From contig JBDRPX010000003.1 in the NCBI GenBank assembly GCA_043826565.1, positions 3,614-67,613 of the forward strand: a stretch of DNA of 64,000 nucleotides. Direction: 5' to 3'. Numbering within the stretch: position 1 is the stretch's first letter; each line of letters begins with the position of its first letter. The DNA is from Candidatus Omnitrophota bacterium. GTDB lineage: Bacteria; Omnitrophota; Gorgyraeia; B26-G9. Made by a program: the position numbers and the translations under genes. Shown here piece by piece: positions 1,635 through 46,641 of this stretch. A model generated the notes under the pieces. It did no database searches, was not told the DNA's origin, and saw nothing but the letters and a program-made list of their open reading frames with translations.

Positions 1635-1714
1635 TATATGCCGGGTATACGCCCATTGCTGATGTTCTTGGAAAAATAATAAATACAGCATATAAGATTT
1701 AGAATAGGATGGGA

Positions 1715-1758
1715 GGGTGGGCGAAACACAATAATAATGTTTCGCCCACCCTTTTACC
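1715..1758 (+). terminator. Rho-independent terminator
   Basis: Perfect 14-bp inverted repeat GGGTGGGCGAAACA (1715-1728) / TGTTTCGCCCACCC (1738-1751) with a 9-nt loop, followed by TTTT. It lies inside ORF-track call 1709-3463, which argues that the gene's real start is downstream. Confidence 0.75.
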
Positions 1759-1816
1759 TTTAATGGGTAAAAGGAAAATACTGAAACTAAATATAAATAT
1801 AGAGAAGGAGAAATTG

Positions 1817-3463: not shown

Positions 3464-3485
3464 TAAATAAAAATAAAGGAAGATT

Positions 3486-6485
3486 ATGTTTAAGCAAAAA
3501 GAAGGTTTATTGAGAAAAGCATTTATAGTATTCCTTATTAATATATTTATTTTTGCGAATACGCAAGGATCATTTGCGGCACAGGTATATGTTGAACATA
3601 AGAATATGGAGACTTCTACACTGGCTCCGAATCTGCGCATGACCATGGATACGCTGAGAATGGTATTCAATAGTTTTATGAATCCGTCTAAGGAAATTAA
3701 AATTCGCAATTTAAATATTTCCTGCGGAGTATTATCCGATCTGGTTAAAGAAATACAAGCAACTGAAACCGGTTGTATAATCACTAATAAAAATGGTGAT
3801 ACTTTAAATGTAGATGCTATTCAATACGGTGATTTCGATCTATTACAGGTCGGTGACATAAGGTATGTTGTCCGGGATACATCCCAAACAGTTGATCTCG
3901 CTCAGATAAATCCATTGGCAAATACGGCTTATCAGCAGTTTTTCGGAATTGATATTAATGCTATTTCTCCGGAACAGTTGGGATTTGCTCTGCCGGTTGC
4001 CGAAGCAAAAGAAAAAAATAGTGTGGATATGTTCCCGGTACGGGGACAGACTGCGGATACGGTTTTAGCATCCGCGCGTGAGTTTGTTCTAAAAGCACAG
4101 GGAATGGTAGATGCCGGATCTTCACTGAACCGCCGTTTGATAAACGAATTGCTGAATAATATTTTAATTATCGGTTTAAACGGCAGCTGGGAAGATTATT
4201 ATTTAGCTAAGGATGTGCTGGAAAAATATAGGGAAGTGAAGCATTTTTCTGATTATAAGAATATCATGGTCAATATGATGAACGGATTGTTTTTTTCCTA
4301 TGTCAGCTGTGACTGGAGAAAAGTAGAGGAGTACAGCAGGATAATTCTGCAGGGAGAAAAAAGCGTTTCCGGACGCACAAAAACAATGTTTGAATTACCC
4401 ATAGAAAATGCTCGTCTTCCAGTAAATAATACCGTAGATTATGAAGTGGAAAGCATAAAAATACTGGGTGAAGAAGAATTGGAGCATATGGCTACTGATG
4501 ATTCCCGGGAAGAATTTCGTTTAGGACAATCCGCGGTTGAGCAGGGCCGGATTGTTTCTATTCCCTTTTGCGGCGGTTCCGCGACAACAGTAAAAAACCT
4601 TATTGGAGAACATAAATTAGTGCATCAGGCGATTAAAGTGAGGGTGAAAAAAGCCGATGGAACTGAAGAAATAAGATATATAAGTGTTACGGACGCGCGG
4701 TTAGGTTTATTACGCGCGCAGAATCCCAACGCGCAAATTGCTATGGTTACCAGTGTCTCCGAGCCTGGTGGTGTGGATAGTGATAAAAGTATCAGACAGG
4801 CCATATCCAAGCGTTACCCCGGAGCCTTAGCCGACGGTAGAATCAGTATTTCTATGCAGAGAGCGCAAACAGTACTGAATAATAAAACCGGTTATCCTAT
4901 GCGTTTTGACAGCGGTTATACCGCGGCTTGCGCGGAAAACCATATGTGGGCTTTATTAGCGGTATTGATGAATAAAGAGGCGATGATTAATTATTTAAAA
5001 AACAGTGACGGTATTTTTTCTATCGGTAACGGTGATAATATATTGAATATTGTAAAAGAAGGCATGGTCGGCGCTATTTTAAAAGCCAGAGAACAAGGCC
5101 GGGCTTTGGCCACAGTTCCTCTGGCAGCATTATCTGCCGGAGACAGAAAAGGCGGAGTAATGGTGGAAGTTACTTATCGTCATAAAGACAGGCATTCGGA
5201 AAAAATAGTGCAAAAAGAGATCCGTGAGATCAGTGAATTCCCGACACGTCCGGGCAGCGGTTTTTCCGGAGTTACCATTGACGCGGAAAAAGAATTAGAG
5301 GCTTTTCAGTATTTTGAGCAAAAGGGCTGGTTTATTGAAGATTTGTTCGGAAATACCGCGAAAGCGTTTAATGTCGCGTTTTACGCGATTGACGGACGTT
5401 TAATAATTTCCCGAATATTTGGTTTTGATGAAAATAGCGCTGGTTTTATCGAACAGTTGGAAAAGATCAGTGCGGATGAATGGATAAATAGAATACTTGA
5501 TATTGTTTATGAGGTGCAAACTACGGTAAAGCCGTCCAAAGGAGTTCCTAATGAAAATGGAACAGATACGGTAAAAGGACGAATAATTGAAAATGCCGTA
5601 CAGGATTTTATTGTTAATGGCTTGGCATTATTAGCAAAAGAGGGAAAGCCTAATCTGGAAGCAGAGATGCTTATTGCCGACAGAAAGGATATTTTTTTAC
5701 CTTACAAAGGAACGGCCCAGCAGAGATTGGATAAAAAAGGAGAACCGATCCTGGGAACTAATGTTTATGATTTGATCGCCAATCAGGACCGCATTGCCGG
5801 AGTTATTGAGGAAATGGCTGCTCAGGGGCAATTAGCTGATTTAGGTAATGGAGAACAGGTGCTGGAAGCAATCCCGATTTATAATCTTGATGAAATTATG
5901 ATCGCCAGCAGTGATGAGGGTTTAACACCGAGTGATATTAGTGAAGATATGGTCATCCGTCATTCTTTGGCACGTTTGGCAAAACACACTCAATCAACCA
6001 GTGCTAAAATATTAAAATCTTTTGGTTTGATCCCGGATAATAAGGAAAACGCAAAAAAGAACTTATTGAGTATTCGTGATGCGGCGAAGAGCCTGAAAGA
6101 AGAAATCGAAACTATGGCCTATCACCGGGTAATTTATGATACGATTGATAATGTTTTAAGACCGAAATATAAATTAGATGGTATTCTTATTAATATTGAA
6201 ACAACAAGCCAGTTAATTGTCGAGAGGATGGATAGTGAAGGTTTTAATTATGCCGAAGCAATGTTAAGATTATCTGAGGCCTTGGGCGAACTTAGTGTTT
6301 TTGCTCATGATTTTTTAGAAGCATCTTCGCAGGAATTGATTTTAGGGGAAGTTGCTCCGAATAAAACAGCGATCGATATTACCAGGATGGTTTTAAATGG
6401 AAGAGCTCCGGTTGATCAGCAGGAACCGGGTAAAGCAAATGTAGAAGCCCTAGATTCCGTAAATATGGTTTTGCAGGCTATATAG
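3486..6485 (+). CDS. Large secreted or membrane protein (999 aa), member of the leader/LAP-motif family
   Basis: RBS AAAGGAAG before the ATG. N-terminal hydrophobic leader (KAFIVFLINIFIFANTQGSFAAQ) followed by TLAPNLRM, which matches the [C/Y]LAPxV motif that follows the leaders of four other proteins in this window. Confidence 0.65.
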   Translation: MFKQKEGLLRKAFIVFLINIFIFANTQGSFAAQVYVEHKNMETSTLAPNLRMTMDTLRMVFNSFMNPSKEIKIRNLNISCGVLSDLVKEIQATETGCIITNKNGDTLNVDAIQYGDFDLLQVGDIRYVVRDTSQTVDLAQINPLANTAYQQFFGIDINAISPEQLGFALPVAEAKEKNSVDMFPVRGQTADTVLASAREFVLKAQGMVDAGSSLNRRLINELLNNILIIGLNGSWEDYYLAKDVLEKYREVKHFSDYKNIMVNMMNGLFFSYVSCDWRKVEEYSRIILQGEKSVSGRTKTMFELPIENARLPVNNTVDYEVESIKILGEEELEHMATDDSREEFRLGQSAVEQGRIVSIPFCGGSATTVKNLIGEHKLVHQAIKVRVKKADGTEEIRYISVTDARLGLLRAQNPNAQIAMVTSVSEPGGVDSDKSIRQAISKRYPGALADGRISISMQRAQTVLNNKTGYPMRFDSGYTAACAENHMWALLAVLMNKEAMINYLKNSDGIFSIGNGDNILNIVKEGMVGAILKAREQGRALATVPLAALSAGDRKGGVMVEVTYRHKDRHSEKIVQKEIREISEFPTRPGSGFSGVTIDAEKELEAFQYFEQKGWFIEDLFGNTAKAFNVAFYAIDGRLIISRIFGFDENSAGFIEQLEKISADEWINRILDIVYEVQTTVKPSKGVPNENGTDTVKGRIIENAVQDFIVNGLALLAKEGKPNLEAEMLIADRKDIFLPYKGTAQQRLDKKGEPILGTNVYDLIANQDRIAGVIEEMAAQGQLADLGNGEQVLEAIPIYNLDEIMIASSDEGLTPSDISEDMVIRHSLARLAKHTQSTSAKILKSFGLIPDNKENAKKNLLSIRDAAKSLKEEIETMAYHRVIYDTIDNVLRPKYKLDGILINIETTSQLIVERMDSEGFNYAEAMLRLSEALGELSVFAHDFLEASSQELILGEVAPNKTAIDITRMVLNGRAPVDQQEPGKANVEALDSVNMVLQAI

Positions 6486-6494
6486 TAATAAAGT

Positions 6495-6515
6495 TGAGTG
6501 AAGATGTTCTTCACT
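6495..6515 (+). terminator. Weak hairpin after the 3486-6485 gene
   Basis: 8-bp inverted repeat GAGTGAAG/CTTCACTC with a 5-nt loop. There is no U tract, so it may be only a partial terminator or an RNA-processing site. Confidence 0.3.
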
Positions 6516-6583
6516 CAAATACTCATTGGTAGTGCTGGGAAATTTTATGGCCGGTAAATAAATGAGTTTAAAAAGGATGTGTT

Positions 6584-6967
6584 ATGGCTGAAGAAAAACG
6601 CAAATTTATTCGTGTTAAGACCCGCAAGTCTGTAGCTAACTGCCGATTACTCGCAAATGAGAGATCCGGGGAAAGTAAATTCGCGGTTTGGCCGGTTAAA
6701 GATCTTGGAATCGGCGGAGCTGCAGTTTATTGCGAAGATGATATTCCTTTGGAAACCCTGGCCTATTTGAATATGGACCTTGATGTGATCAGAAGAACTA
6801 TTGGGGTTATTGCTAAAGTAATCTGGCGTCAGGCCAAGGATGCCGGATATGAATTAGGTTTGCGGTTTTGCTGGTGGCCGTTGACAGATGACCGGGATGT
6901 CATGGCTGATTATATTGAAAATAAAATAACTTATAACGATACTTCCGAGGAAGTATTACTAGGATAG
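6584..6967 (+). CDS. PilZ-domain protein (putative c-di-GMP receptor), 127 aa
   Basis: N-terminal RxxxR-type motif (KRKFIRVKTRK) and DxSxxG-type motif (DLGIGGAAV), as expected for PilZ. C-terminal FCWWPLTDDRD motif shared with the two other small PilZ proteins here. Confidence 0.7.
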   Translation: MAEEKRKFIRVKTRKSVANCRLLANERSGESKFAVWPVKDLGIGGAAVYCEDDIPLETLAYLNMDLDVIRRTIGVIAKVIWRQAKDAGYELGLRFCWWPLTDDRDVMADYIENKITYNDTSEEVLLG

Positions 6968-6978
6968 AGAACCATTCT

Positions 6979-6997
6979 CTCACCCCCGGGGTGAGGG
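6979..6997. repeat. GC-rich palindromic element CTCACCCC-C-GGGGTGAG(GG)
   Basis: Inverted repeat between the PilZ stop (6967) and the next gene. The same CACCCCCGGGGTGAGGG 17-mer recurs at 63982-63998. Confidence 0.6.
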
Positions 6998-7029
6998 AAT
7001 GGTTGGTAAATCAGGAGGAAATCAGGTTA

Positions 7030-9669
7030 ATGCGTGCTCTGAATTTGAAAAACAGGATGTGTTTCAAAATTACAGCTTTTATTATTTTACAGGTGTTTCT
7101 ATTGTCCAGTACAGTAGGCGCAGCTGGGTTGGATCATTTTGCAGTTAATGATCGCGCGGAGTGTCTTGCGCCGTCTGTGCGTTTGGATAACTCTCTGCTT
7201 ATGGATGTGTTTAAAAGAGCGTCGGAGCAAGGTACTGGGCTAGGGGTATTCTCTATTGAGTCAGAAGATATCAACACGGAAGTTGCTGAAGGACTAGTAA
7301 ATTCTTCAAAACAGGCAGCTGACGAGGGAACTTCCGGGCCGAATAATAGCGGGCAATCAGTTAATGGGACAAACAGTGCTCCCGGGCAGATGTTTTTTGG
7401 CAGCGGTAATCCGGAACAAATTGAAGAGCCGATCTGGCCGCCGCCGCAAGCAGAAGCGATCGTTGTCGGCAATGGAAATAATTTCGGCTTACCTTATTTG
7501 TGGAAAAAAGATGAAATGATCAAAGCTTTAAGAGCCTATGGCTTGGCTTGTAATTGGGATGAGTTTTCCCGGATGGAACTGCGCAGCCTTTTAAAAACAT
7601 TAGGAGAATTAATTGAAAAAGACGGTACTTTTGCCGCGAACTTAGCCGCGGTAAAGCCTTTGGCAGTAACCAGAGGTTCTTATTATGTTAATAAGGGAAG
7701 AAAAGACAGTAATCAGCTGGCAAAAATAGTGCAGAGTAAAGGCGAAACCCGGTTGGTATTGTATAAGCCTTTCTTTTATCAATTGATGTTCATGCCGCAA
7801 AACCGGCAGATGAAAAGAGAAGCTTTACAGCAGATCATTGGTGATTATGCGGAATCAAATTTATTTTTTGATAAGCCGCAAGCTAAAGGTAAAGAGGAAC
7901 AGCCAGTGATGGTTTCTTTTAATGATTTGGAACTTATGTCTGCTGCGGATGGTGACGCGAAATTAATAAAGATCGGAGTTCCGGAACATATGATCCCGAT
8001 CACAAAATATATTGTCTACAGATTAAAGCAGTATCGTGACCCGGCACCAGAACATCAATGGCAAAAGGGATTTTCCAATGTACGGATAGTTCGGGCGCCG
8101 GTTTTTTCCCTTAATGTTTTTGAAGCAGCTTTAAAAGAAGCTAATGTGCCTGCAGAGCATATCGATAGAAATCATATAGAAGAATTGTGTGAACTGATCA
8201 ATAAAGAGATGAAGGACCGGAAAGAAACGAGACTTGAGGTAATGTTTTTTAATAGCGCATTGCGAGTTGTTCCGGCGATCAGTCCTTTAAATGATAAACA
8301 AAAAGAAATAATTGTTAATTATTTAAACAGGGCAATTAGTGAGTTAAAAGAATATGAAAAACGTTTTTGGGTTGTTTGGGAAAAGCCGCGGGAAGACGGT
8401 GACGGCACAGAAACTGTTTTAGATATTTATGTGGATAAAATCCCTTATCTTTATACTCTTTCGCAGGATTGCCTGAAATATCCCGGAGCTCCGGATGGAG
8501 CCCGGATCTGGCGCATTGATCCGGCAAACACCGCAGAGCCGGCTAAGACATTATTAGATTTGGTGCTTGACGCATCTCTGGCTCCGCATGAAGGCGGTAA
8601 ACACGGGCACGCGATGAGAGTTCCGGTTGCGCAGGGAAGCGGTGATGCTTTAGCTATTCCCTGGGATGAGATCGAAGACGCGCAGGATCGGGAAAAAATG
8701 CTTATGGATTTCTTAGTAAGGATCGCGAAAAGAGATTGGCCGCAAATAATTCTGGATGTTTTTAAAGGCCCGCATAAATGGGTACCGGCATTAAATGCTA
8801 TTGGCAATGCTTTAAAACAAAAAGGCCAGGGCCCTTATTTGCCGGGGCCAAGGCCTATTACCCAGTCAATAATCAGAGAAGTTCAGGCTAATGCCGGAGT
8901 ATTTCATGAATCCGGGATCATGGGCCTTGCGGTCGGGCAATGGTTTTTCCATGTTTATTGCGCGGATGATATCGGCCGGATACACGCGAACAATAATATT
9001 GATTATTATTTGGCTACGCGCTGCACATTTTTAGATGCCAAACAGCGTGATGAGGTAAAACGCTGGGTAGTTAAAATTAATAATGCCCACCGCAGTTTAC
9101 TGGGGCAGAAACCGCAGGAATTAAACATTGTATTTGATACTGATGACGGTTATCTGTTTGGGACGAAAGTTCCCACAAATAGCGGCGGGCTGTTTGCGAA
9201 TTTAACAAGTAGAAAAATCGGAACAGGAATGTTTTCTTTACTGGCAAGTATTTTTACGCTCAAGAGTATTTTTGGGGTTCCGGCTGCGGAAGCGGCAGTG
9301 CCCGGAATTGTTAAGGCAGGATTTGCCGGTTCCGGAGGCTCATTACTTTTCGCTGTTGGAATTACTCTGGCGATTGGCGTTCCTCTGGTGATTATTGTTT
9401 TTTCCAGAAGATATCTAAACAGCAGAAGAGTTTCCCTGGCTTTGCGTGCCGGTATTGGCGGGCCGGTAGAATATACTGCTGGTAATAAATATCCTCTGGG
9501 AACAGGATGGGGGGATATTATACCGGCTAATAAAGATATTATTAGCGCAACAGCAGCAGCAGCCAGCGCTTTTGTCCGAAAAAGAGGATCAATGGTAACT
9601 CCTCCGGTTGATAATGGTAGTGGAGTCGGCAGCCGTAATACAGGTGTTTTGATAGAGTCATCAATTTAG
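7030..9669 (+). CDS. Leader-family membrane or secreted protein (about 880 aa) with a C-terminal TM anchor
   Basis: The ORF track starts at GTG 6991. I prefer ATG 7030, which has AGGAGG 11 nt upstream and aligns the leader (KNRMCFKITAFIILQVFLLSSTVGAAG) with the other family members. ECLAPSVRL motif follows. A hydrophobic stretch lies near the C-terminus (LLFAVGITLAIGVPLVIIVF). Confidence 0.6.
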   Translation: MRALNLKNRMCFKITAFIILQVFLLSSTVGAAGLDHFAVNDRAECLAPSVRLDNSLLMDVFKRASEQGTGLGVFSIESEDINTEVAEGLVNSSKQAADEGTSGPNNSGQSVNGTNSAPGQMFFGSGNPEQIEEPIWPPPQAEAIVVGNGNNFGLPYLWKKDEMIKALRAYGLACNWDEFSRMELRSLLKTLGELIEKDGTFAANLAAVKPLAVTRGSYYVNKGRKDSNQLAKIVQSKGETRLVLYKPFFYQLMFMPQNRQMKREALQQIIGDYAESNLFFDKPQAKGKEEQPVMVSFNDLELMSAADGDAKLIKIGVPEHMIPITKYIVYRLKQYRDPAPEHQWQKGFSNVRIVRAPVFSLNVFEAALKEANVPAEHIDRNHIEELCELINKEMKDRKETRLEVMFFNSALRVVPAISPLNDKQKEIIVNYLNRAISELKEYEKRFWVVWEKPREDGDGTETVLDIYVDKIPYLYTLSQDCLKYPGAPDGARIWRIDPANTAEPAKTLLDLVLDASLAPHEGGKHGHAMRVPVAQGSGDALAIPWDEIEDAQDREKMLMDFLVRIAKRDWPQIILDVFKGPHKWVPALNAIGNALKQKGQGPYLPGPRPITQSIIREVQANAGVFHESGIMGLAVGQWFFHVYCADDIGRIHANNNIDYYLATRCTFLDAKQRDEVKRWVVKINNAHRSLLGQKPQELNIVFDTDDGYLFGTKVPTNSGGLFANLTSRKIGTGMFSLLASIFTLKSIFGVPAAEAAVPGIVKAGFAGSGGSLLFAVGITLAIGVPLVIIVFSRRYLNSRRVSLALRAGIGGPVEYTAGNKYPLGTGWGDIIPANKDIISATAAAASAFVRKRGSMVTPPVDNGSGVGSRNTGVLIESSI

Positions 9670-9688
9670 ATTTTAAAAGAGAATTAAA

Positions 9689-10054
9689 ATGTCAGATAAA
9701 GAAAGAAGACAATACAAAAGAATTAAAGTTGAAAAGATTGGGGCGGATTACCGTCTTGTTGACCCTAATTTTTGGGCCCAGTCCAGAGCGCAGGGGAAAA
9801 ACAGTTTGCAGGATATTAGCCTTAGCGGAGCATCGTTTAATACCGGAGATATTTTGCCGGAAGATTCTGTTTTGGATTTAAATCTAAAATTGGGAAGTCT
9901 GATAAATATTGATGGGATTTGCGGCCGCATTGTCCGCGTACGAAAACTCACTAGCGAGAATTTTGAAATTGGGGTTGTTTTTTCCTGGTGGGAAAGAGAA
10001 GAAGATAAGCAAAATCTCGTAAAATTTATGGAACAAACCGGAACTAAACAATAG
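9689..10054 (+). CDS. PilZ-domain protein (putative c-di-GMP receptor), 121 aa
   Basis: ERRQYKRIKVEK (RxxxR) and DISLSGASF (DxSxxG) motifs. C-terminal VFSWWEREEDKQ motif. Confidence 0.7.
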   Translation: MSDKERRQYKRIKVEKIGADYRLVDPNFWAQSRAQGKNSLQDISLSGASFNTGDILPEDSVLDLNLKLGSLINIDGICGRIVRVRKLTSENFEIGVVFSWWEREEDKQNLVKFMEQTGTKQ

Positions 10055-10067
10055 AGCATCCTGAGAG

Positions 10068-10101
10068 GTTCCGCGAGCGAAGCGAAGCGCAAAAGCGGAA
10101 C
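10068..10101 (+). terminator. Candidate hairpin after the PilZ gene
   Basis: GTTCCGC (10068-10074) / GCGGAAC (10095-10101) 7-bp stem with a 20-nt loop and no U tract. Weak. Confidence 0.25.
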
Positions 10102-10369
10102 AGGTTGCCCGCAATCCGATGGTGCGATTTCAACACATCCCCTTCCTTTAATTAGTCTATTATAGAAACAAATTTTTTAGTTATTTGTGATGAATTTGTG
10201 TTTTATTTTAAAAATTTCTTTTAAATATAATTTTTTAAAGTAAAATATTTAGTTAAGAAAATAACGCATTTTTGGGCAAGTCAAGAAATGACTGGTTTTA
10301 GCTGATGGGATATTTTCGTAACTCCTCTATTTTTAGTTAGTTACATTCCGAAGAAAACTCAGATTTTTT

Positions 10370-10398
10370 TTGACACCCCCCACTTTTTATGATATACT
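10370..10398 (+). promoter_or_regulatory. Sigma70-like promoter for the giant gene
   Basis: TTGACA (10370-10375), exact 17-nt spacer, TATACT (10393-10398), with an AT-rich UP-like tract upstream. Predicts a leader of about 150 nt before ATG 10552. Confidence 0.6.
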
Positions 10399-10551
10399 AT
10401 AAATGTGTTAAAAAAGTAGGAAAAAAATAATATAACTTGTTCAAAAATAAGGTAATTACAAAAAACATATATAGATTTTTAGTTGACTGATTAAAGAGCT
10501 GGTAATTCAAATGTTTATTGATTAAATTGAGTGTTATGAAAATCAGGTGAT

Positions 10552-13500
10552 TTGATGTATTACTCAAACAAAAAATTCAGTCTCGGTTTTAAAATAATCG
10601 CTGCGGTGATTATCCAGGCTTTTTTGGTGACTGATATTGTTTGGGCTGCCGGTGGAGATCTCCGCTGGATAAATGATCAGGAGAATACATCACGCTCGGC
10701 TTCTAAAACTTCCTATCTTGCGCCTACCGCAAATATTAACAAAGGCATATTCCGCACAAAATTTGATTTAGTAGTTTCGCTTATTAATGCTATGGAGAAT
10801 CGGGATAATACGGAACTATTGGCTAAACATGGAATTAATGTGTTTAGTGAAAATGTCCTCTCTATTCAGGGTGAAAAAGAAACACTTTATATTTATGATC
10901 GGAATGCTGAGGGTATTCCTTTGTTCATAACCGGGGCAGAGCAAAAGATTATATTTAATGGGTATGTGATTTCTGCTGTGCCCAATGAAAATGCTGATGC
11001 GCAAAGTCTGAATGTTCCGGAGGGTCAGGCAAGTGTTCTGAGCCGGCGTGAATTTAGTGATAAGCTTAAAGTTTTGGAAACGCAGGGAAAGGACTTTAAT
11101 CAGGAGGAGGCTCTGGAATTAGTAAAGCAATCAATACTTTTAAGCGGGCTTACCGGTGGGCAGTGGAAGGATGAAAAGTGGGTTATTCAGAAAGATGCGA
11201 TTGTCTTGATGCAGAGCGGTATGGTTGTTCGGATGCCGACTTCTGCGGGTAAGACATTTGTATTTAACGGTACCGGGATATTAAGAAGCCTGGCCAATAA
11301 ACTAAATCCGGATGCGCAAAGGGAAGTATCTATTGTTCATACTGAAGAAGGCTTGATTGAAAGAGACGCGAGAAATGCCGGAAAAGTAAATGGCCGTTTC
11401 GGGCTGAAAACAGGATATGTTGTTTCACGTGATGGTAAAAGAACAGCTTATTTTGTTGATGCTAATGGACAGGAGCAGGAAACCACCGAGCAGGAGCTTT
11501 ATAAAGAAGCAAATATCGTTTATGTGAATATTTATAATTTCATCCATCGTTTTTTGGATGACCGGTTTACCGCCAGAAAAGCCGGGGATCAGGCTTTACG
11601 CTGGGGAGAGCAGACTTATTTTGTTGCCTTTGACGAAGGTGATGTTCCATTAAAGCACCATGTTTCTACGCCTTGTATAATTTCCGGAGGAGAAACCCTG
11701 AATGCGGATGATCTCGTGAAGCGGGCGGAACAGCTGCTTAAGATGCAGGAAATCATTGATCAGCTTATTCATGAAGGACTCTTGAATGAAGACGGAACCA
11801 GGGCCGAAAATGAATTAGCGGAAGTTAAAACTGGTTCTCAGACCGCGACTCTTACGAGAAAAGGAAAAGCCTGGCTTAAAGATAAACTTCAGCAGGTAGA
11901 GCAATACAAAAATAATCAAGGTAAACAATCTATTTTTGCGGATGATGCTTTATGGGAAGAGCATGTCGAGCAAGCGCTTTCCGCTTATTTATTTTACCGT
12001 AAAGGTGAAGCCTATAATATCTCCGAGAATAATGAAATCGTGATCATTGATAAAGATACCAGCGGTATGCAGTTAGCCGGAAGGCGCTGGAGCCATGGAC
12101 TTGATATTGCGGTAAGGTTAAAAGAAAACAGAACCAGAGATGAAAACAGTAAGCTGGAAATTAAACCTGACCAGATGACGATTGCTTCCATGATGCTTCC
12201 GGAAATCCTCAGCGATACGTTGGGACTTGTTTCCGGAATATGCGCGGCTTCGGCGACGATCAATAAAGATACCGCGGATATGTATGGTTTGGATTTTAAA
12301 TCTCTTAGCGGTGAAGCTTCCAAAAGAACAGAGCGGGTAATTATGAGTTCTGATCAGGCTGAATCAGCGCGGAATGCGCTTAAGGCAATTGATGTTCTAA
12401 AAGCGGGAGTTGCGGCTGATGAATCAATGCAGGATTGGGGCCTTCCGGAAAAATCAGGATCGGTATTAATCCGCTGTGATGGAGAAGTGCAGGTTCGTGA
12501 GTTTGCCGATTTGCTTATAGCAAATACTCAGATGAAGGGCCGGAATATCCGGCGGATTACTCAGGATGGGAAAATACTTGATGCCAGCGGCAAAGAAGTT
12601 CCGGGAATAACTATTGATGATCTTGATTCTTTGGTTAGTGATGAAACAATTGATAATGTAATAATTGAATTTACTTCCCAGAATCGCGAAGTGCCGGCGG
12701 ATGGGAAAATGCTTAAAGATCGGATAGAAGATCTTTCTCAGCATCCTAAAGTTATAATTGTATCCACACACTTAGCCGGACGCGGAGTTGATTTTAAGGG
12801 CGATGATATGGTGGTCATGTCTTTAAGCGCTGACCCGGCTGAAGAAACTGATGTGCAGTTGAGAGGCCGCGGCGGCCGTGACGGCAGAGTGGGTTACTTT
12901 TTCGGATTTTGGTCAGTCCAGGATGCGGTATTTACAAAATATACAAGTCTGGTTAATGAAGAACTGAAATATTTCACCGCTAAGGTTAAACCCGGACAAA
13001 CGCATACTTTTGAGATCACCAATGATAGTAAGACCGCGGGTGATAGTGAAAAAACTGTAATGGCAATGCGCGAAATAATAAACGCGCATAATCAGAATAT
13101 GCGGCGCGCGCAAAAAGCTTTTGGTGAATTATCATGGAATGAGGGGGATGAAAACGGTTTTGGCGAAGGTTTTGCCAGAACGCACTCCAGAGCCAGAGAG
13201 CGGATCATTTCTAAAGGAATAGAAGGATTAAATATTCCGGAGGATGTTTTAGCCGCGATCAAGACTAAAATCAGCAAGGTTGTTAAACAGAAGCGCAAAA
13301 CTCTTACCGGGATACCCAGCTCGGCAACGGTTATTTCGATATTAGAAGATGAGTTTGGGTTAAAGAATGTTGATGCTGATATTGCACAGCAAGCATTAGT
13401 TTCGGCACAATATAACCTGGAAATGGCTTTATTTACGGTTATTGCTGATGTGCTTCAGGCTAGAGCATTACAAATCGTTGATCAGCAATGGATGCGTTTT

Positions 13501-16500
13501 GTTACCGATTCAGAATACCAGAAACATCGGCTGGAAAAAGCACTGGCGAGATCGGGATATCGGAGACAGTTTATTCCCCAACAGCAGTTTGATTCGGAAA
13601 TAAGGCTGGTCATTACGGAAATTTTTGAACGGATAAATAAGGATACCAAACGGCGGCTGGGTGAAGGGGTTATCGGTCTGGCTCATCAACTTGCGGATAA
13701 AACTCCTACGGATACGGAAATGTCCGAAGCTAGCGCTGCCGCTCAACCAGACCGTGTCCCGTTTACGGCGCGCATGAAATTATTGGCATTAAAAATAATT
13801 CCTTCGGCAGTTATGATTGCGGCTAATGTCGGTCTGGCTTATGGACTGGGCTTAGTATTTAAAGGACTTACTTTAGGCGGGGTTGAAGCTGCTTCCGGAT
13901 TACCCATAATCGGAAATTTGATTACATTACTTCTCGGTTTGGGGCCGGTGGCACTTGTGGCGATTACTATTGGTACGATAATTATTGCCTGGTCACTTAA
14001 TTCTCAAATAAAAAGATTATCACAGGTTGATTCTACTATTGCGAAGATGGCTGAAGCTATTTCCTTGGGGCATAGGAAAAAAGCTAAAGAATTAGGAGCA
14101 ACGGTTGTTACTTCTTCATGGCGTAAAACTCTTACGGTTACTGCTACTTTCGCGCCGCTGGTCGCGGCCATGACTCTTTTTTCACTTTTAGGTTCTGCTC
14201 CTTTTACCGCGGGAAGTGTGGGAGTTATTGTCCTGCTGGCTTCAGCGGTATTAGGTATAATAAGTGTTGTTTCTTCCGGATTGCTCTTGGCGACTTCACG
14301 TAAAGATATGAAAAATGCCCCGAAACTTCCCATGACGGCAACAAAAAGATTTTTCCGCGGAATGATCGGAGGAGCTTTAACTATTTTAGGTATGGGAGCA
14401 TTTTTGTTCGCTTCCGGCGGCACTATGGGGCTGCCGATTCTTGCTGGTATCGCGGCGATTATTGCCAGCGGGTTTATTGCCCGTAAAATATTCTCTATAA
14501 GCAGTGATGATGTGGCCGCGAAAAAATGGGTTACTCCGATGGGTTTTGTCGCGGGTATCGCGGTCGGACTGGGAATTATTTTAGGGGTGGTCCCGTTCTT
14601 TGGCGCTCAGGTTTTTGAATCGATGACTACAGCAATGCAGACCGGAGCTATGCCCGGAGGCGGAGTGCTTAAGGTTGTGGGATATCTGGTAATGGGATTG
14701 TTTGCTTTTCAGGGAATAATGTTTGTTGGAGCTCAGCGCTATGCCGCAAAAAGAATTGCCGGGCAGGAAGGCGGGCTTACCGGAGAAACAGGACAGATAA
14801 AGCGTAAACAGCTGGGCTACATGATCAGAGCCTCAGCACTTAATGCCCGCATGGTCATGATCGCTGTCGGTGCAGTTGTCGGAATAGCTTTGCTGCTTAC
14901 CGGAGCATGGGTTGCTCCGGTTGCCGGATGGGGAATCCCGATGTGGGGCGCACGATTACTCGCTGCTTTGCCGGTGATGGCTTTATTTAGTGCCTTGGGA
15001 TTTGTTTTGCAGCGTTTTATTACTCGGGCATTAGATAAACCGGTAAATTATTCCTCTCTTGCCAAACGAAAAAGAAAAGATTTTCTCAGTATCCAATCGC
15101 AGTTAGAAAAGGTTGGCCTTAGAGATTTTTCAAATAATATCGGCGATGTAGTTAATGAATTTAAGAAGGATGTTGCTAAAACAAATAGTCCTTTGGAATT
15201 GGCTTATCAAAAGCTTGGCGGTATTTCTTCGGAAGATAAGCTTTTTCAGGCATTTCTTAATGAACTGCAGAACTCAACGCCTAATGACGGAAGATATTTT
15301 TCTCAGGCAGAGATTGATCATCTGGTTGCCAAAATACCGGAGGCATTATTAACTGCTCAACAGCGCCCGGTTTTCCGAAAAGCCGTTACCGCGGTTTTAG
15401 TTGAACTTAATCTGGCTAAAATCGGATTCGATAGATTATTCTACACTGCTTCCAATCCGGAAAAAATCACCAAAGGAATGAATTCTTTTCTTATGCCGCT
15501 TATGGGCACTTCTATGCTTGTGGCTGCTCCGACTGCTGCGGCAGTTGCCCAAAGCCAATATGCCGGAGTTCCCTATACTAATGTTGAGGTCAATGTCGCG
15601 GAAGCTCCGCAGAAGGTTCGGGATTACTATAGCACTTTAGCGGGGAAGATGTTTGAGACTGTTCCGGCAGAAGAAGATGCTGATGCCCAGGTTCTTCCAC
15701 AGCAGGGAACGATTGATTGGGGGACACAGGTTGAATCATTTACAGCTAAGCAGATAATCAGCCGGATAGAAAAAGACGCGGCGGAAAAATTTAATGCGGA
15801 TATTGAGCAAGCGCGGCAAGAAGCAGAACAAGCGCAGACCGAACGTGAGAAAATAGCGGCTAATCTGAAATTAATGGAGCTTGTTATTAACCGCAAGAAA
15901 TTTATTTTAGACCAGATTGATAAACATGCGGAGGTTACCGCGGAAGATAAACAAAAAGCAAAAGATATTTTAACCGATGTCAGCCGGCTGGAGGCACTTA
16001 TCCAGTATCAGCAGATGATTGATATGCGGGAAGAGATCCTGAATAACCAAAAAGAAAGACTGGATAAACTTCAGAAACAATTAGCTGCCGCAGCGGATCA
16101 GGTGCAAAAAGATATTCTAACGAAAACAATAGAAGATCTTAAAAAACAAATCCAGGAAGCAGAATTGACGGTTACCAGACATCGGGAAGCCTATGCAGCA
16201 CAGGCACAGGAAAAAGGAATCGATCCGCTGCTTTCTACTAAAGAGCTTACCGATCAAAAAGACCGGATGATTGCTTCGGTAATTGGTATTCCTGCCTACA
16301 TTATTAAATTGTCACAGGAAGTTGAAAGAATATTAAGTTCACAGCAGATGCTTAAACAGCAGGAAGAATTGTTGAATCTAAGGGAACAAGCCGAAGCTGA
16401 GCGTAAGAAGCAGGAAGCTGCTGAGCAAGCCAGAAGAGAAGTTGCGGAAAGAGCAGCAGCGGTAACCAGAGTAGATACGGTAACCGATGGTTCCGGACCT

Positions 16501-19500
16501 CCGCCGGAAGATAAAGAGCCGGCAGTTACACGGACAGATCCTGTTGCCGGGCCGGCTCAAAGAAGAGATTTTTCCGTGGCAGAAGTAAGCAGTGCTTATT
16601 TGAATAACGGCTACAGTCCGCAGGATGTTTCCGCTATCCTTAATACAGCAGATGCTCCGGCAACCGAAGCATTCCAGGGAATAATTCAAGCAAAAGGTGT
16701 GGCCTATTCTAAGCAGGCAATCCAGGATTTAATAAACGGCGGTTATAAAGAAGCGGATGTCTATGCCGGGGCAGTTACCGAACTTCAAATCAGAGGCTAT
16801 AATGCCGAACAGATCGTAATATTACTGCTTGATCCTGTAACCGCGGGCACAGAACCTACTGCCGAGCAGATGGAAAGAGCAAAGCTCTTAGCCGGTATAT
16901 TACTTAAAGGAGTAACCGAACAGAATAAATTGCGCGCGGCATTGGATTCTCTAATATTAATTCCGGAAAGATTAGGCGTTGATAGTCCTCCGGTTCAACT
17001 GGGAGCAATGCTTACCGGCCGGCCGTCGCTTAGTGATGTTTCTCTAAAAGCAAAACTTGACGCGCTGCAGCAGAAACTTGATAACAAAGAAAAAATCACA
17101 CAAGGTGATATTGACAGTGCTTATGATTTAGTCGAGAGAGTTCTTAAATGGCGGGTTGCTGAAACCGCATTAAAAGACATGGCTAGACAGCGGCAGCAGC
17201 AAAGGGAGCAATCAGCATCAACATTAGTTGCTCCGGTTGATGCTACAAATATTCCTCGGGCCATAATCGTAGATGAAGACGCGGATACGGTTACTATTCC
17301 CCGGGCAATAATTGTCAGCGAGGATTCAGATAATATTACTATTTCGCGAAAGAGCATTACCGAGGCTTCTCTTCCGGAGTTACCGGCATGGGGGCCTCAG
17401 AATGAAGGGATTTCAGATGTAGGAGTTTTACCGCCAAAAGACGCTATTGGTTCGGATAATATTATTATTCCCCGGGCAATAATTGTCAGTGAAGATGCGG
17501 ATACGGTTACTATTCCTCGGGCAATAATAGTTGAAGAGAATGCCGTGGCTAGCACTCCTCAACCGGATGCAGAACATATTGTCCGAAGCGGAGATCGTGT
17601 CGGTGAAGTCATGGTTGACCTGGCTTCGAATCCTACGCAGTGGCAGGCGATTGTAAATATTTACAATAAATTTGCGCATGATAATCCGCAATTGGGATTA
17701 AAATTAATCAGAGTTTCCGATGGTACTTCCGGAGTTAATATTTCCTGGGTCAATCCTGTGGATGCGGTAAATACTGCCGCGGGCTTGACCGTGACTTCTT
17801 TAGCCGATCAGCTTGCCGGTAAAAAAGCAGTTACTGCGGCAGATTTTGGTATTAGCCTGGATATTGACCTGGTGATTCGCATTGAAAGCAATGCCGACCC
17901 GCGGGCGGAAAACGCTAAGAGTAAAGCCAGAGGGCTGATGCAGATAATGAAAGAAGGAGCATTAGCCGATTGGAATAAATATCATCCGCGGGAACAGTAT
18001 TCTTTTGACGATATGTGGGACGCGGATAAAAATCGGAGAGTAGGCAGTTGGTATCTAAATCTAAGAATACCCCAGATGCTCCAGGCTAGTAATAAAGAGA
18101 TCACTTTGGAAAATATTTTATGGGCTTACAATGGCGGGATTAAAAAGGTGGTTGACGGTGTCCTTCCTAATGAAACCAGAGATTATATTAGAAAATATAG
18201 AGTCGGCCTAATAACAACCGCGGATAATCTTACGGACCGGATTACCGATCTTCTGGTCAGCAATGATATTAGAGGATTGATCCAGGTTGCCAGCGGTGCT
18301 AAGCCCGGGGAAGTCCTCGCAACTACAGCGGCGGCGCCAAAAGAGGGAACAGCAATAACTCAGGCTAAACAGCGGCTTTTAGAAGCTGTGGGGCGTTATC
18401 AGGAAATGGAACAAAGGTATCAGGAACTTGAACTGGAATATTCGCGTTACTTTGATGTTATTCAAAGCGGCGCGTATTTTCTGGATCTTAAAAAAGGTGT
18501 TATTGATGTTAATGCTGTAGCCAAGCTGAAACTGCAGTTGGAAAAGCTAAAGAAAGTTGATCTGGAATTTAGAAGAACCCAGTTGGAATTTATTCAGGAT
18601 TCTCTGGAGGCCTTAGAAGCGGAGATCAAAAAGCTGGAAGAGTCCGCGGAAACTTTACAGAGCAATGATGATATTCTGAATTCTTCCTTAGCCAGACTCC
18701 AGGAACAGATAGAAGAAACCGCAGCTAATATTACTTCTGCCGGAGTACAGATAGAAAAACTAAAGAGTTCATTGAAATTGTGGCAGCAGGCGCTTGCGGA
18801 TGTTAAAGCCGGGAAAAAGGTAAACATACCGCAATTACTGGGAATGGTCAGAGAAGAAGATAAAATATATGCCCAGCAGGTTGCCGCGGCGAAAAAAGGA
18901 GATGTTACACAATTAACCGCGGAGCAGACGAGATTGGGAATTGATCCTGATCGCGCTTTGATTATTACTAATGTACAAATTGATGCTAATGCCGTAATCC
19001 TGAATCAGGCAGGGATAGATATTAAAACGCTTAATTTGATGATCGCGAATAATCAGTGGCTAGTTCATCGTTTAGGTGATCGTGTCGAACTTGCTCCGTT
19101 TGCCGGAAGTTCTCCGGTCAAGATTGAATATTTTATTTTAGGACACAATTTAACACCTCTGGCCCGGGAAAGTGCTTTTAACACGGCGATCACCTATTGG
19201 GAAAAACAGCTCGAATGGGCAATTGCCGATATTCAATATCTGCAAAATATACGGCTTATTTCTCCGGAAGTTTCCGATGAAGAAAAGAAAATCATTCAAG
19301 GTCAGGTAAGTAATCTTCGGGATAAAGTGCAATTTGCTGAAGCTACGATCGCTGATCTTAGGGGTGATCTTGATTATTGGAAATTATCCCCCACCCAAAG
19401 AACTAATGCCCGGGCTCAGCTTGCGGTAAGGAAGTTGAAAGTAGTTAAAGGGAAAGTTTCCTTTTTTACCGACGTGTTAGCTTTGTTGAAGGATATGGAA

Positions 19501-28500: not shown

Positions 28501-31500
28501 GCTGAAGAAAGCCTTAATAATGCGCATACTTATATCAGCGGACAACAAGGAGAGGGTTTAGTTATCGCCAATACCTATGGCCGAAGCGCGCCGATTGTCC
28601 GCGAGCAAACAGGATCTTTAGATCAGCCGGCACAGCGTCAGCAGATATATGATTTCTTATCATCGAATATAAACGGCCAAAGCGGAACAATTGCCGAGCA
28701 GCATCGTTTTAGCGGTGATAAAGGATTTACTCAGGATGAAGGCCAGGGAACTTTATACGGCAATTCTTTAACCGGATTTGTCTTTGATCTGGTGGACGCA
28801 AGATTAGAACAGCAGGCAATTACGGATTATGTCGTGGATACTCCGAGCTTAATGGTCTATCGTCATGATCCGACTTCTAAGCAGAGAAGCAGAACGAGGT
28901 TGATCGGCATATCTGATTCTTTTGATACCGCTTCTTATACCGGCCGTCCGGAGGAATTGTACGCGACAACCGGTCCGCAGGCATATTATGGCAAGAGATT
29001 ACTCGCGGAATATCAGAGAACCGGAGATAAGAAATATTTAGACCAGGCTTTGGTGATTTACGGATTGCTTAGGGAACGCCAGGTTGCTAACGGCGGTTTT
29101 ATAAAGGCTCCGCAGCGCGGGGATCTCCGGGATAGAGAAGAGGATCAGGATAAGATCATCTCTGGTGAAGAAAATATTGCGGCGCTCAGCTTCTTAAGAG
29201 ATCTTGCGGAAATTATCAAAGGTGATAAACAGTACCGAAAAATTAATAAAGATCTGAGCACAAGATTACATAATGCGGTTAATTTTGTGTATTCATCATT
29301 ATATGACAAACAGACAAATACTTTTACCCGCGGGTTAAACTTTGAGGATAATCAATGGCGCAGGGACGGTGTTATGGCCATAGATGTGCTTAATTTATTG
29401 ATCTTAGAAGAGGGCGCGGATAATCTCGCGCAGCGCATCGGCGCGGATAATCTTATCGTGTTATGGGACCAGAAAGAACGTACAACGCTTGCTGCGGTAA
29501 CAACACAGCGTGCTGACGGAACCAGTGTTACGGTTACCGGTCATGACTGGACAGATAGTACCGGCCGGGGAGATCGTGCTGCCGCGGTGTTTGTCGAACA
29601 GACTTTTATTGATTCTTTAGCGCATTTGGAAATGGCGGCATTATTTAAAAACGCGGGTAATGCGGCTCGTGCGCAGCAGGAATTAAATACCTATAAAACT
29701 CATTTAAGTGAATGTGATAAACTGGCGGTTCATGTCGAAGGCAGAGGAGTTGTTTATCCGTATGCGTCTATGAGCGGGATTAAGCCGTTTAGCGATTCAA
29801 ATCGGATAATCCCGGAGCATTTTGGTAATACTTCCGCTACAGCCTGGGGATTCTTTGCTAAATCCCGGTATAATCTTTTTGGTAATAGAACCCTGGATGC
29901 GGATACTGTTATTGATCGAGTTACTCCGAGTTTTACGAATACTTTGGCCGGCCGGATCCGGGAAGAAGCCGCCAGGCAGATAGAATTATTACCGAATAGA
30001 ATGCAGAACGCGGTGAATGGTTCCTATGAGAAAAAATTAACTTCCGGCCGTCAGTCAATTGATCAGGCCGTAGAAAAATTAGAAGCTTTAATGCTCCGCG
30101 CGGCGGATGATATTACTCCGAGTGTTGATGAAGATTACTTGATCGCTTTTGATAATGAAGCAAGTATATATTGGTTCTGGAGCGCGGAACAGCAGAAAGT
30201 TGTGGAAGTGACCATGATTGCTGATAGCGAGAGTATTAAACGTGACCTGGCGAATCTGCAATTATCTTATGAATACGCCAAATTGCGGCAGTCCATGCGG
30301 CAGGACAATCTAAGTGGTTTGGAAATTACAAGTATTGACGGTGCTCCCATACGTTTACCCAGCGAATTGAACACGCAAACATTAGACGGCCAGCCGTTCC
30401 ATATTCCGGCAGGTTCCGCCGGTGTTGTCATCGGTCATGATCTGCTTTTAAGAAAACTCAATGAAATTGACGCATTGCCTTTAGCGCAGCAGCGTCAAAT
30501 CGAACGCCGCGGCTGGATGCTGGTCGATACTCTCGGCAATATCCTGGGTACGGATGATAAAACACCGGTTCGGGTTCGTTTATTATTCCCTTCAGGCAGT
30601 TGGCAGAGAACCAGAAATAATCCGGATACCGGAGTAGAGGAGACATTACATTTTAGAGGCGGATATGGTTTAGAAAAAGTGGTTACGGATAATTATACTT
30701 CTATAACAAGTTATAATGAGGTCGGCCTTGCAAACCGGGTAATTACTTTTAAACGAGATGCCGGAGAAGAACCAAAAGTAAGAGAGCTTACCGGAAATGC
30801 GCTTGATGAATTCATCATGACCGGTAACTTTAAAGAAATTGCCGGAGTAATTGAAATAAGAAATATTACCGCCCAGGATTTTAAAGGCAGTATTGTTTTA
30901 GCTGATTTAGAGCCGGTAGTCGAAGAGTTTGTCAGAACGCATAGACAATATCTAATTGCCAGAGGTACTCTAAAGCGTGATAGTACCGCGGAAGAAAGAA
31001 AAGCGCTGGTGAAGACAATGTCCGCGGATTTACAGCAGCAGCTTATAGCTAACGGTTATTTAAATGAAAACGGAGATATTTTAGATAAATTTAAAATATT
31101 GCCTGATTCTACCGCGCTTAATATTTCTGATGAATTTACCAGGATGCGGGAAGCTGTTTATAACCGCGTTCTTCGTGCTCTTGATTGGCACAGGATCGGA
31201 TATAGCGTGGATAACCCGGTATTAAACGCGCAGCAGTTGGAAGTATTTACTCCGGCTTCCCGCCAGGCGACCTGGACAATTACCGATACGAAAGTTAAAC
31301 TGGCTTTTCCCAATGAATTCGGACATGTTCAGAGAGCGGATATCTGGCATCAGGATGGAACGATGGATCAGCCGAAGCGCGGTATTTTAGGCTGGCAGGA
31401 AACAACCCTAAACCGGGATAAAACAAATCATGAATTGACAATCCACAGTATTAATCTGCTGAATGACCGGGAAAAAGATACGGTTTTTGATTTATCCTAT

Positions 31501-46257: not shown

Positions 46258-46641
46258 ATGGGAAGAAGTAGTGTTATGGATATGATACAGGATAAACGTC
46301 AATGCAAAAGGCGGCGCACAAAATACGCGTCCATTAGTTTGCGGTCTCTGGACCCGCAGGCGTGGTTTAAGTTCTGGGGCGGCGCGGAGTGTTTTCTGCG
46401 TGATCTCAGTTTGCTGGGAGTGGGAGTTTACAGCCAGGAAAAGCTTCCTATCGGCACGCGCTTAAGCATTGACCTGCGTTTGGGAAAACAGGCCAGCAGT
46501 ATCCGGGTTTTCGGCCGGATCACCTGGACGGAAAAAGAGGATGATCAGTACCGCTCCGGAGTAAGCTTTTCCTGGTGGAGAGATGACCAGGATAAAAAAA
46601 TTGTCAGTAGTTTTGTGGAAAGACTTGGATTAGTTAACTAA
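46258..46641 (+). CDS. PilZ-domain protein (putative c-di-GMP receptor), about 120-127 aa
   Basis: KRQCKRRRTKY and DLSLLGVGV motifs. C-terminal SFSWWRDDQDKK. The start is ambiguous among ATGs at 46258, 46276 and 46282. Confidence 0.65.
   Translation: MGRSSVMDMIQDKRQCKRRRTKYASISLRSLDPQAWFKFWGGAECFLRDLSLLGVGVYSQEKLPIGTRLSIDLRLGKQASSIRVFGRITWTEKEDDQYRSGVSFSWWRDDQDKKIVSSFVERLGLVN

Follow-up and report, generated by a model that had tools for sequence, protein, structure and literature searches.

RESULTS

A lytic transglycosylase domain within an 11,888-residue protein

The DNA analyzed here, referred to as the window, is a stretch of 64,000 nucleotides (nt) on contig JBDRPX010000003.1 of the Candidatus Omnitrophota assembly GCA_043826565.1. 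It contains a giant open reading frame (ORF) at 10552-46218 on the plus strand, which encodes 11,888 amino acids (aa) according to both the ORF list and its full translation, and which starts with a TTG codon followed directly by ATG. The frame is single and uninterrupted, as the original prediction had assumed, and at 35.7 kb and 44% GC it cannot be chance. All window ORFs of at least 150 aa lie on the plus strand, except for one that runs antisense within the giant gene. Inside the giant protein, the original prediction had placed a peptidoglycan-cleaving domain of the SLT/GH23 type at 17830-18200. This assignment was borne out, and the coordinates proved accurate: a family-1 lytic transglycosylase (LT) domain of the SLT/GH23 type occupies nt 17836-18201 of the plus strand, corresponding to aa 2429-2550 of the giant protein.

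The suggested Pfam assignment was carried out and yielded 44.6 bits (E 1.2e-11) for the SLT family (PF01464) on the isolated fragment, covering profile positions 19-102 of 117, with a gathering cut-off of 21.3 bits. When a 4,900-aa piece of the protein was used instead, SLT matched aa 2440-2533 with 39.6 bits. A six-frame scan of the window with a 99-member family profile revealed a single match, at nt 17836-18201 (E 1.5e-49). No competing ORF of at least 60 aa crosses the domain on either strand. The in-frame translation of 17680-18400 contains LVIRIESNADPRAENAKSKARGLMQIMKEG, and the same frame also reads LVIRIESNADPRAENAKSKARGLMQIM, which confirms the strings quoted in the original prediction. 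Besides the ES and AYNGG motifs named there, the domain possesses a GLMQ motif and a C-terminal Tyr. The GLMQ, AYNxG, and C-terminal Tyr motifs are said to have been defined by Blackburn and Clarke in 2001.

The catalytic residues were assessed with two alignments. In an alignment of 14 sequences, the window protein has all 12 invariant columns (I-E-S, G..Q, N, Y, A-Y-N-x-G, and Y); in one of 99 sequences, it retains all six invariant columns as well as the near-invariant ones. The column of the Glu in the E-S motif is invariant in both. When the family profile was compared with PDB sequences, the counterparts of IESsgNP were IAIESGGNP in E. coli MltE and QTESSFNP in MltC. The MltE Glu opposite the window Glu is chain residue 47, as counted from the printed alignment, which we take to be the catalytic E64 of the full-length numbering. 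The role of this residue is supported by PDB entries titled "MltE inactive mutant E64Q". The catalytic Glu, whose loss upon proper alignment would have spoken against an active enzyme, is therefore present. With the TTG start counted as residue 1, the predicted catalytic residue is Glu2445 (GAA codon at 17884-17886, plus strand) within motif I, IES (aa 2444-2446). On the same strand, translation and alignment place motif II, GLMQ, at aa 2461-2464 (17932-17943) and motif III, AYNGG, at aa 2525-2529 (18124-18138); the alignments put the invariant family Tyr into the C-terminal YIRKY at aa 2545-2549 (18184-18198).

The structural prediction led to the same assignment. AlphaFold2 modeled aa 2420-2580 with a mean predicted local distance difference test (pLDDT) value of 91.6 and a predicted template modeling score (pTM) of 0.82, and the SLT domain has a goose-lysozyme-like all-helical fold. 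A Foldseek search against the PDB returned bacterial LTs exclusively on ranks 1-35, including P. aeruginosa Slt, Slt70, LtgA, Cj0843, MltE, and MltC, at a probability of 1.00, although the best E-value was only 9e-4 and the template modeling score ~0.57. Among predicted viral structures (BFVD), the best match to the SLT model had an E-value of 4e-6. We conclude that the identity of the domain as a family-1 LT (GH23, Slt70/MltE-type) is secure and that its predicted catalytic residues are intact.

Relatives and origin of the SLT module

A search of the SLT region against 5.8 billion proteins gave best matches to proteins of 129-166 aa with 44-53% identity, most of which have a hydrophobic N-terminus. 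A profile search covered 1.84 billion representatives, of which 486 scored at E ≤1e-30, and the top 150 of these were inspected. They are mostly 125-300 aa long, while in about a dozen, of 466-996 aa, the domain is C-terminal, and one 1,575-aa protein combines an SLT domain near the N-terminus with an ART-PolyVal domain. No giant carrier was found among the top 150 of the 486 strong representatives. The 80 best metagenome loci gave a similar picture, with 131-231 codons in the stop-to-stop frame containing the domain in 77 cases and a maximum of 812.

Several relatives are encoded by phages. The gene for one of them (P0006) lies just downstream of tail genes, namely a tape-measure ORF and five more, on a phage-like contig, and a second one (P0007) is located on a related contig. 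Another matches the PHROG "internal virion protein with endolysin domain". In IMG/VR, a scan of viral contigs seeded with the 14-sequence alignment identified 25 contigs encoding relatives with 31-55% identity. The nearest relative by BLOSUM distance is encoded between the genes for the large terminase and the major head protein; the corresponding tree was calculated by neighbor-joining on 122 columns. The family is not exclusively viral, as a more distant member (32% identity) is chromosomal. Because a tblastn search with the domain against the INPHARED phages gave no match at 1e-5, the link to phages comes solely from uncultivated viral contigs. No phage genes were found in the window, and the domain is thus not encoded in a phage genome. 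Judged by its sequence relatives, the module is part of a compact subfamily whose other members are small stand-alone proteins, in many cases phage-encoded; it is a homologue of phage enzymes but not itself a phage endolysin or virion gene.

The base composition was inspected for signs of recent horizontal transfer, and no signal was obtained. The GC content of the SLT domain is 0.436 compared to 0.438 for the whole giant gene, and both GC and the GC content at third codon positions (GC3) of the domain are within the spread of the gene. Since the two values equal those of the rest of the gene, the capture was not recent. The module appears to have been acquired by the giant-protein lineage long ago, with its base composition now matching that of the host gene.

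The SLT domain as an accessory module

A scan of GTDB genomes with the carrier protein identified two loci, L004 and L005, both in Candidatus Omnitrophota metagenome-assembled genomes (MAGs). The L005 sequence comprises 4,256 aa of a giant ORF that is homologous to the one in the window, matches its product at aa 2-805 and 2587-4795, and contains a strong SecA_DEAD domain. It is the sole related giant protein whose sequence covers the SLT position. Neither Pfam nor the family profile detected an SLT domain in these 4,256 aa, and the homology resumes ~37 residues after the end of the SLT domain of the window protein. The absence of SLT from L005 points to a variable module related to the target and speaks against a core part of the assembly. 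No orthologues covering the SLT position were obtained from an N-terminal alignment in JGI metagenomes. A protein search with aa 2100-3100 returned nothing that scored, which is a weak negative, as coiled-coil words probably crowded out the candidates. The original prediction had let the SLT domain characterize the whole protein as envelope-active; this goes too far for one 120-aa accessory module that is embedded in ~7,000 otherwise unannotatable aa and is missing from L005.

The region preceding the SLT domain has a possible counterpart in L005. The L005 segment HTVVSGDTLSAIAKN (9132-9380) matched Pfam LysM with 24 bits, as compared to a cut-off of 20.9, across profile positions 1-16 only. 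At the position of this match, the window has HIVRSGDRVGEV; its sequence at the equivalent place is also given by HIVRSGDRVGEVMVDL. This possible degenerate LysM-like segment, which is unproven, comprises aa 2342-2424 (17575-17823, plus strand) and aligns with the L005 segment at E 0.1. It was modeled with pLDDT values of 52-74 as helix-helix-strand-strand. Given this confidence, the pairwise E-value, and the lack of any Pfam LysM match in 17575-17823, we did not adopt a LysM module upstream of SLT; the segment may nevertheless represent a conserved wall-binding element at the SLT insertion point. We read the SLT domain as an accessory insertion or loss beside a possibly wall-binding segment.

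A short distance upstream of the SLT region, at aa 2234-2328 (17251-17535, plus strand), the protein carries four IPRAIIV(D/S/E)E repeats, which are predicted to be disordered (AlphaFold pLDDT <50). Paired copies of the extended form, IPRAIIV(D/S/E)E(D/N), are 94% identical over 17 residues.

The giant carrier protein and its membrane topology

Only two regions of the giant protein were recognized by Pfam across all pieces, the SLT domain and a divergent SecA-like ATPase at aa 212-778 (11185-12885, plus strand; Pfam and NCBIfam). For the latter, Pfam reported SecA_PP_bind with 37.6 bits, Helicase_C with 23.5 bits, and a weak DEAD match, while NCBIfam SecA models reached 87 bits versus a cut-off of 814 and matched at model positions 80-384 only. 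The region thus consists of divergent SecA DEAD and preprotein-binding parts without the scaffold and wing domains. A motif search located the Walker A motif TSAGKTF at 11239-11259 and a DEGD box at 11629-11646, both on the plus strand. The first 1,000 aa have a single close relative, P0014, an incomplete protein encoded by the MAG of a "Candidatus Omnitrophica bacterium" (38% identity), in which both motifs are unchanged; all remaining matches of the first 1,000 aa are true SecA proteins. The close relatives P0014, L004, and L005 place the carrier in Omnitrophota genomes. Neither Pfam searches with ten sub-fragments (E up to 0.5) nor phmmer against PDB sequences revealed further credible domains.

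The protein begins with a signal-like helix ending in a VWAAGG motif (aa 1-33; 10552-10650, plus strand), with the hydrophobic peak at aa 15-33. The sequence TDIVWAAGGDLRW is identical in the giant homologues P0014 and L005. A related N-terminal motif is common to the giant ORF and the ORFs at 6991, 46820, and 62335 (more weakly also at 3486-3650), in the window stretches 10552-10720, 46820-46960, 62335-62480, and 6991-7200. It consists of a hydrophobic helix (..IQAFL..D..) that ends in WAGG or WAAGG and is followed by an L(A/S)P box ~10-17 residues on. The shared motif resembles a signal or sorting sequence specific to the lineage, although in the giant protein an ATPase domain follows it.

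Transmembrane (TM) features were derived from hydropathy only. The analysis revealed five hydrophobic clusters and 20 uncharged hydrophobic stretches, and hence numerous putative TM helices. The first cluster spans aa 1075-1490 (13774-15021, plus strand) and comprises approximately ten helices arranged as hairpins; the later clusters are located at aa 8549-8573, 8951-9311, 10014-10285, and 10819-10877 (36196-43182, plus strand). Hydropathy showed no convincing hydrophobic segment between the first cluster and aa 8549. When the first cluster was modeled with 10 TM helices, the even loops contained 41 Lys and Arg residues (5, 9, 7, 3, 8, and 9 per loop) versus 3 in the odd loops (1, 0, 0, 1, and 1). 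The sequence directly joined to the ATPase and the 41 residues past the last helix count among the even loops. According to the positive-inside rule, the segment leading to SLT therefore exits the membrane on the ATPase side, that is, on the cytoplasmic side. The helix count is ambiguous (10-13), because uncharged stretches of 34-57 residues may hold one helix more or fewer.

This result does not bear out the description of the carrier as a surface protein in the original prediction, since it puts the flank entering the SLT-bearing segment on the ATPase side. "Giant surface protein" is thus an assumption, and export of the SLT-bearing segment must be postulated. To our knowledge, family-1 LTs act only outside the cytoplasm, as murein enzymes. 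As the SLT domain is intact here, we infer that the segment carrying it is exported at some stage.

Other parts of the giant protein are repetitive. The C-terminus harbors a tandem duplication (43654-44928 and 44980-46059; aa 11035-11459 and 11477-11836) with 35-44% identity over the two longest stretches (E to 4e-43) and 67% over a 45-residue core. Each copy consists of a coiled-coil part and an ITANALG.TVG.MAL.II.ERGANGAFTS segment, and the last copy gave a weak HHH_6 match in Pfam. Several helical repeats of ~90 aa are located between the late TM clusters (38449-43000; aa ~9413-10800), and these are weakly alike, with 27-44% identity and E-values of 1e-3 to 8e-7. An RTGD(K/Q)KY motif occurs in two stretches, ~29000-30300 (aa ~6150-6560, motif at ~6156) and ~35100-36150 (aa ~8190-8530, motif at ~8192). 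Their helical periodicity, judged by eye only, resembles that of six-hairpin (alpha/alpha)6 glycosidases; neither stretch gave a Pfam or PDB sequence match, and BLAST detected no similarity between them.

Genes flanking the giant ORF

Directly after the giant gene follows a small gene for a PilZ-domain protein (46258-46641, plus strand), which was identified with PF07238 on an identical Logan contig and weakly with TIGR02266. Further downstream on the same strand, Pfam and NCBIfam identified a GPH-family sugar:cation symporter (48431-49918) and a GH2-like TIM-barrel protein (49927-51822). A second GH2-like TIM-barrel protein, a tetratricopeptide repeat (TPR) protein, and a pseudopilin-like protein are also encoded downstream. 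We considered an AmpG-type muropeptide permease next to the giant gene and rejected it, as the major facilitator superfamily (MFS) protein is a GPH glycoside symporter. An identical MFS protein, with the same PilZ and 460-aa neighbors, is encoded on a Logan contig of 13,481 bp from SRR26275510. Its presence in a public run indicates that the organism has been sampled elsewhere, in fragments only. A search of the GTDB species representatives for an exact 41-mer from the SLT domain gave no match.

Between the two GH2-like genes lie two adjacent paralogues (52568-53218 and 53388-54044), which encode proteins of 216 and 218 aa with signal peptides and 71% identity. They have no Pfam or NCBIfam match and could be secreted glycan-binding proteins. 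The gene at 61479-62189 encodes a prepilin-type N-terminal methylation motif; its product has a weak match to type II secretion system protein J, and its best NCBIfam match is "Verru_Chthon cassette protein C". Nothing else resembling a secretion or pilus gene was detected in the window. Upstream of the giant gene, 15-9669 contains four large ORFs of 539, 584, 999, and 892 aa. None of them belongs to a credible Pfam family (one has a sub-threshold DUF1722 match; two were also checked in NCBIfam), and none has a counterpart in L004 or L005. A type II/IV secretion-like locus (gspD/E/F) was likewise not detected by Pfam in these four ORFs, with 10.5 kb of upstream sequence visible.

DISCUSSION

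Possible targets of the SLT module

Quite possibly, the SLT module serves to breach the wall of another bacterium, attached as a partner or as prey. This is the reading that we tentatively favor, because the module is accessory, its relatives are phage enzymes, there are precedents for fused wall-breaching domains, and the lineage, Omnitrophota, is thought to be epibiotic or predatory. The original prediction had likewise considered an epibiotic or predatory setting, and the fact that the only close relatives of the carrier occur in Candidatus Omnitrophota MAGs is in line with it. As to the precedents, where domains that cut peptidoglycan are fused into very large proteins delivered to another cell, they are interpreted as a means of breaching the wall of the recipient (PMC5512222). 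In mechanistic terms, Glu2445 would serve as the single acid/base and cleave the beta-1,4 bond between N-acetylmuramic acid (MurNAc) and N-acetylglucosamine (GlcNAc), leaving a 1,6-anhydroMurNAc end. The SLT-carrying segment would be exported, perhaps by the protein's own SecA-like motor together with the TM clusters. Tethering to the giant polypeptide would confine the cutting to where the giant protein operates. There, the module would open the peptidoglycan of the partner or prey at the contact site, much as virion-borne phage transglycosylases do on entry.

Several observations weigh against an attack on a partner. The only cultured relative preys on archaea, which lack murein, and Omnitrophota have a complete peptidoglycan pathway, so that their own wall is an equally available substrate. 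The positive-inside count puts the flank leading to SLT in the cytoplasm, where there is no peptidoglycan, and the N-terminal signal-like helix precedes the ATPase, which makes the topology internally paradoxical. Nothing in the locus is specific for muropeptides, with a transporter that is GPH and not AmpG-type and hydrolases that are GH2-like.

The producer's own wall is the next candidate. Dedicated LTs of type III and type IV secretion systems and of flagella open the cell's own sacculus, and an exported segment of several thousand residues could not pass an intact one. A tethered LT might therefore act as a "space-maker" that locally opens the producer's sacculus for passage or anchoring of the giant polypeptide or its machine. 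In addition to this barrier and to the intact peptidoglycan pathway, the compact SLT-only size, which is like that of specialized LTs, would fit such a role, as would the weak NCBIfam matches to a flagellar-assembly LT and to MltC and the pseudopilin gene in the window; tethering in cis would also limit a dangerous activity to one site. A part essential for assembly should, however, be conserved, unless it is supplied in trans. L005 keeps the SecA-like motor and the downstream blocks without an SLT domain in its first 4,256 aa, and SLT is called "less common" by West-Roberts et al. Moreover, the nearest relatives are phage enzymes and not machine-associated LTs. We regard a self-directed function as rather unlikely, although it is a serious contender.

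A bolder version of the attack on a partner would make the giant protein a self-exporting contact weapon, in which the SecA-like motor and the TM clusters thread a segment of ~7,000 residues outward and a domesticated phage LT breaches the wall of the attached bacterial cell. Simple topology rules would leave that segment in the cytoplasm, and we consider this scenario improbable as a whole. If it were true, the intact SLT domain would serve as a compartment marker for the non-canonical translocation of a ~7,000-residue segment.

Two further explanations fare worse. The SLT domain might be mainly a peptidoglycan-binding anchor or an evolutionary relic in which catalysis is irrelevant, in keeping with its single copy in 11,888 aa and with the partial LysM match at the equivalent place in L005 (24 versus 20.9 bits), which suggests that the conserved role of the region could be wall binding; yet the complete and confidently modeled fold makes this very unlikely, as does the fact that none of the invariant catalytic and structural residues has been lost although identity to the relatives is only 40-53%. 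It is just as doubtful that the SLT segment is truly cytoplasmic and that its substrate is a glycan other than murein, or that it lacks a substrate within the producer and becomes relevant only after lysis or injection into another cell: the Lys and Arg distribution (41 vs. 3) favors a cytoplasmic exit from the first TM cluster, and a 2026 Omnitrophota preprint predicts 46% of long proteins to be TM-only, with the bulk on the cytoplasmic face, but no family-1 LTs are known other than murein enzymes acting outside the cytoplasm, counting helices in uncharged stretches of 34-57 residues is ambiguous (10-13 helices), and TM predictions on Omnitrophota giant proteins are unreliable according to West-Roberts et al. 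(bioRxiv 10.1101/2023.11.21.568195). Published work likewise treats the functions and the membrane topology of these proteins as uncertain.

The SLT domain is also of practical value. It is one of two sequence-recognizable domains in 11,888 aa and the only one with a clear biochemical assay, and thus provides an experimental handle on the giant protein. Its presence also constrains the final location of ~7,000 otherwise opaque residues. Both the phage-type ancestry of the module and its patchy occurrence suggest a gain and loss of wall-attacking modules by giant proteins; a comparison of more complete genomes could then link this turnover to the range of partners.

Comparison with known systems

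An SLT domain in an Omnitrophota giant protein is already on record: West-Roberts et al. (2023; bioRxiv 10.1101/2023.11.21.568195) list SLT as a "less common" domain, and the accessible parts of that preprint do not describe its subfamily or origin. The locus type reported there comprises numerous TM regions, a divergent SecA DEAD region without scaffold and wing, a pilZ gene immediately downstream, and then transporters and glycosyl hydrolases. Such SecA-domain giant membrane proteins also appear as the PF07517 group in the 2026 Omnitrophota preprint. The window protein is similar, with an LT in a very long, TM-rich Omnitrophota protein that has a divergent SecA DEAD/preprotein-binding region, and with pilZ, a sugar transporter, and glycosyl hydrolases downstream in this order; the transporter, however, is of the MFS/GPH type and not of the binding-protein-dependent type given in that account. 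In contrast to many Omnitrophota giant loci covered by the same source, no gspD/E/F genes were found in the 10.5 kb upstream. With 11,888 aa, the protein also differs from the Archaeovorins, which exceed 30,000 aa, and neither Pfam nor PDB sequence searches revealed any member of the Archaeovorin domain set (glycosyltransferase, methyltransferase, glycosyl hydrolase, peptidase, and NUDIX). Thus, by the definition of West-Roberts et al., it is not an Archaeovorin. Nor is it of the dockerin type, as Pfam detected neither dockerin nor TSP3 repeats in the giant protein. New in our analysis are the phage-type ancestry of the module, its accessory status, and the caveat on topology; the general picture published for Omnitrophota is unchanged.

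The internal virion proteins of phages and the "polyvalent proteins" (Iyer et al., 2017, PMC5512222; T7 gp16-type) also contain a lysozyme or LT domain in a very large, multi-part protein that crosses the envelope of another cell. They differ from the window protein in their context: the SecA-like and SLT domains are the only ones detected here, other effector domains of the polyvalent type were not detected, and there is no phage, conjugative, or other mobile-element context in the window. The small phage SLT proteins (on IMG/VR contigs such as UViG_3300009431_000231; PHROGs 669, 2013, and 4067) are closer in sequence, with 40-53% identity over a core of 115-120 aa and the same four motifs. 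These proteins are 130-230 aa long, possess their own N-terminal hydrophobic leader, and are encoded next to terminase, head, or tail genes, whereas the window module lies in the interior of a giant protein of cellular origin and lacks a separate leader.

MltE (EmtA), MltC, Slt70, and P. aeruginosa Slt share the fold, the ES, GLMQ, and AYNxG motifs, and the aligned Glu with the window domain, at 18-24% identity in fold alignments. They are housekeeping enzymes, either periplasmic or lipoproteins, with extra domains in Slt70 and MltC. A weak NCBIfam match of the window SLT domain was to BB0259_flg_lyt. VirB1, EtgA/IpgF, the flagellar SltF/FlgJ, and Borrelia BB0259 each represent a compact, SLT-only unit that serves one envelope-spanning apparatus. 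These specialized LTs are separate polypeptides recruited by protein-protein contacts, whereas the window enzyme is covalently part of its apparatus.

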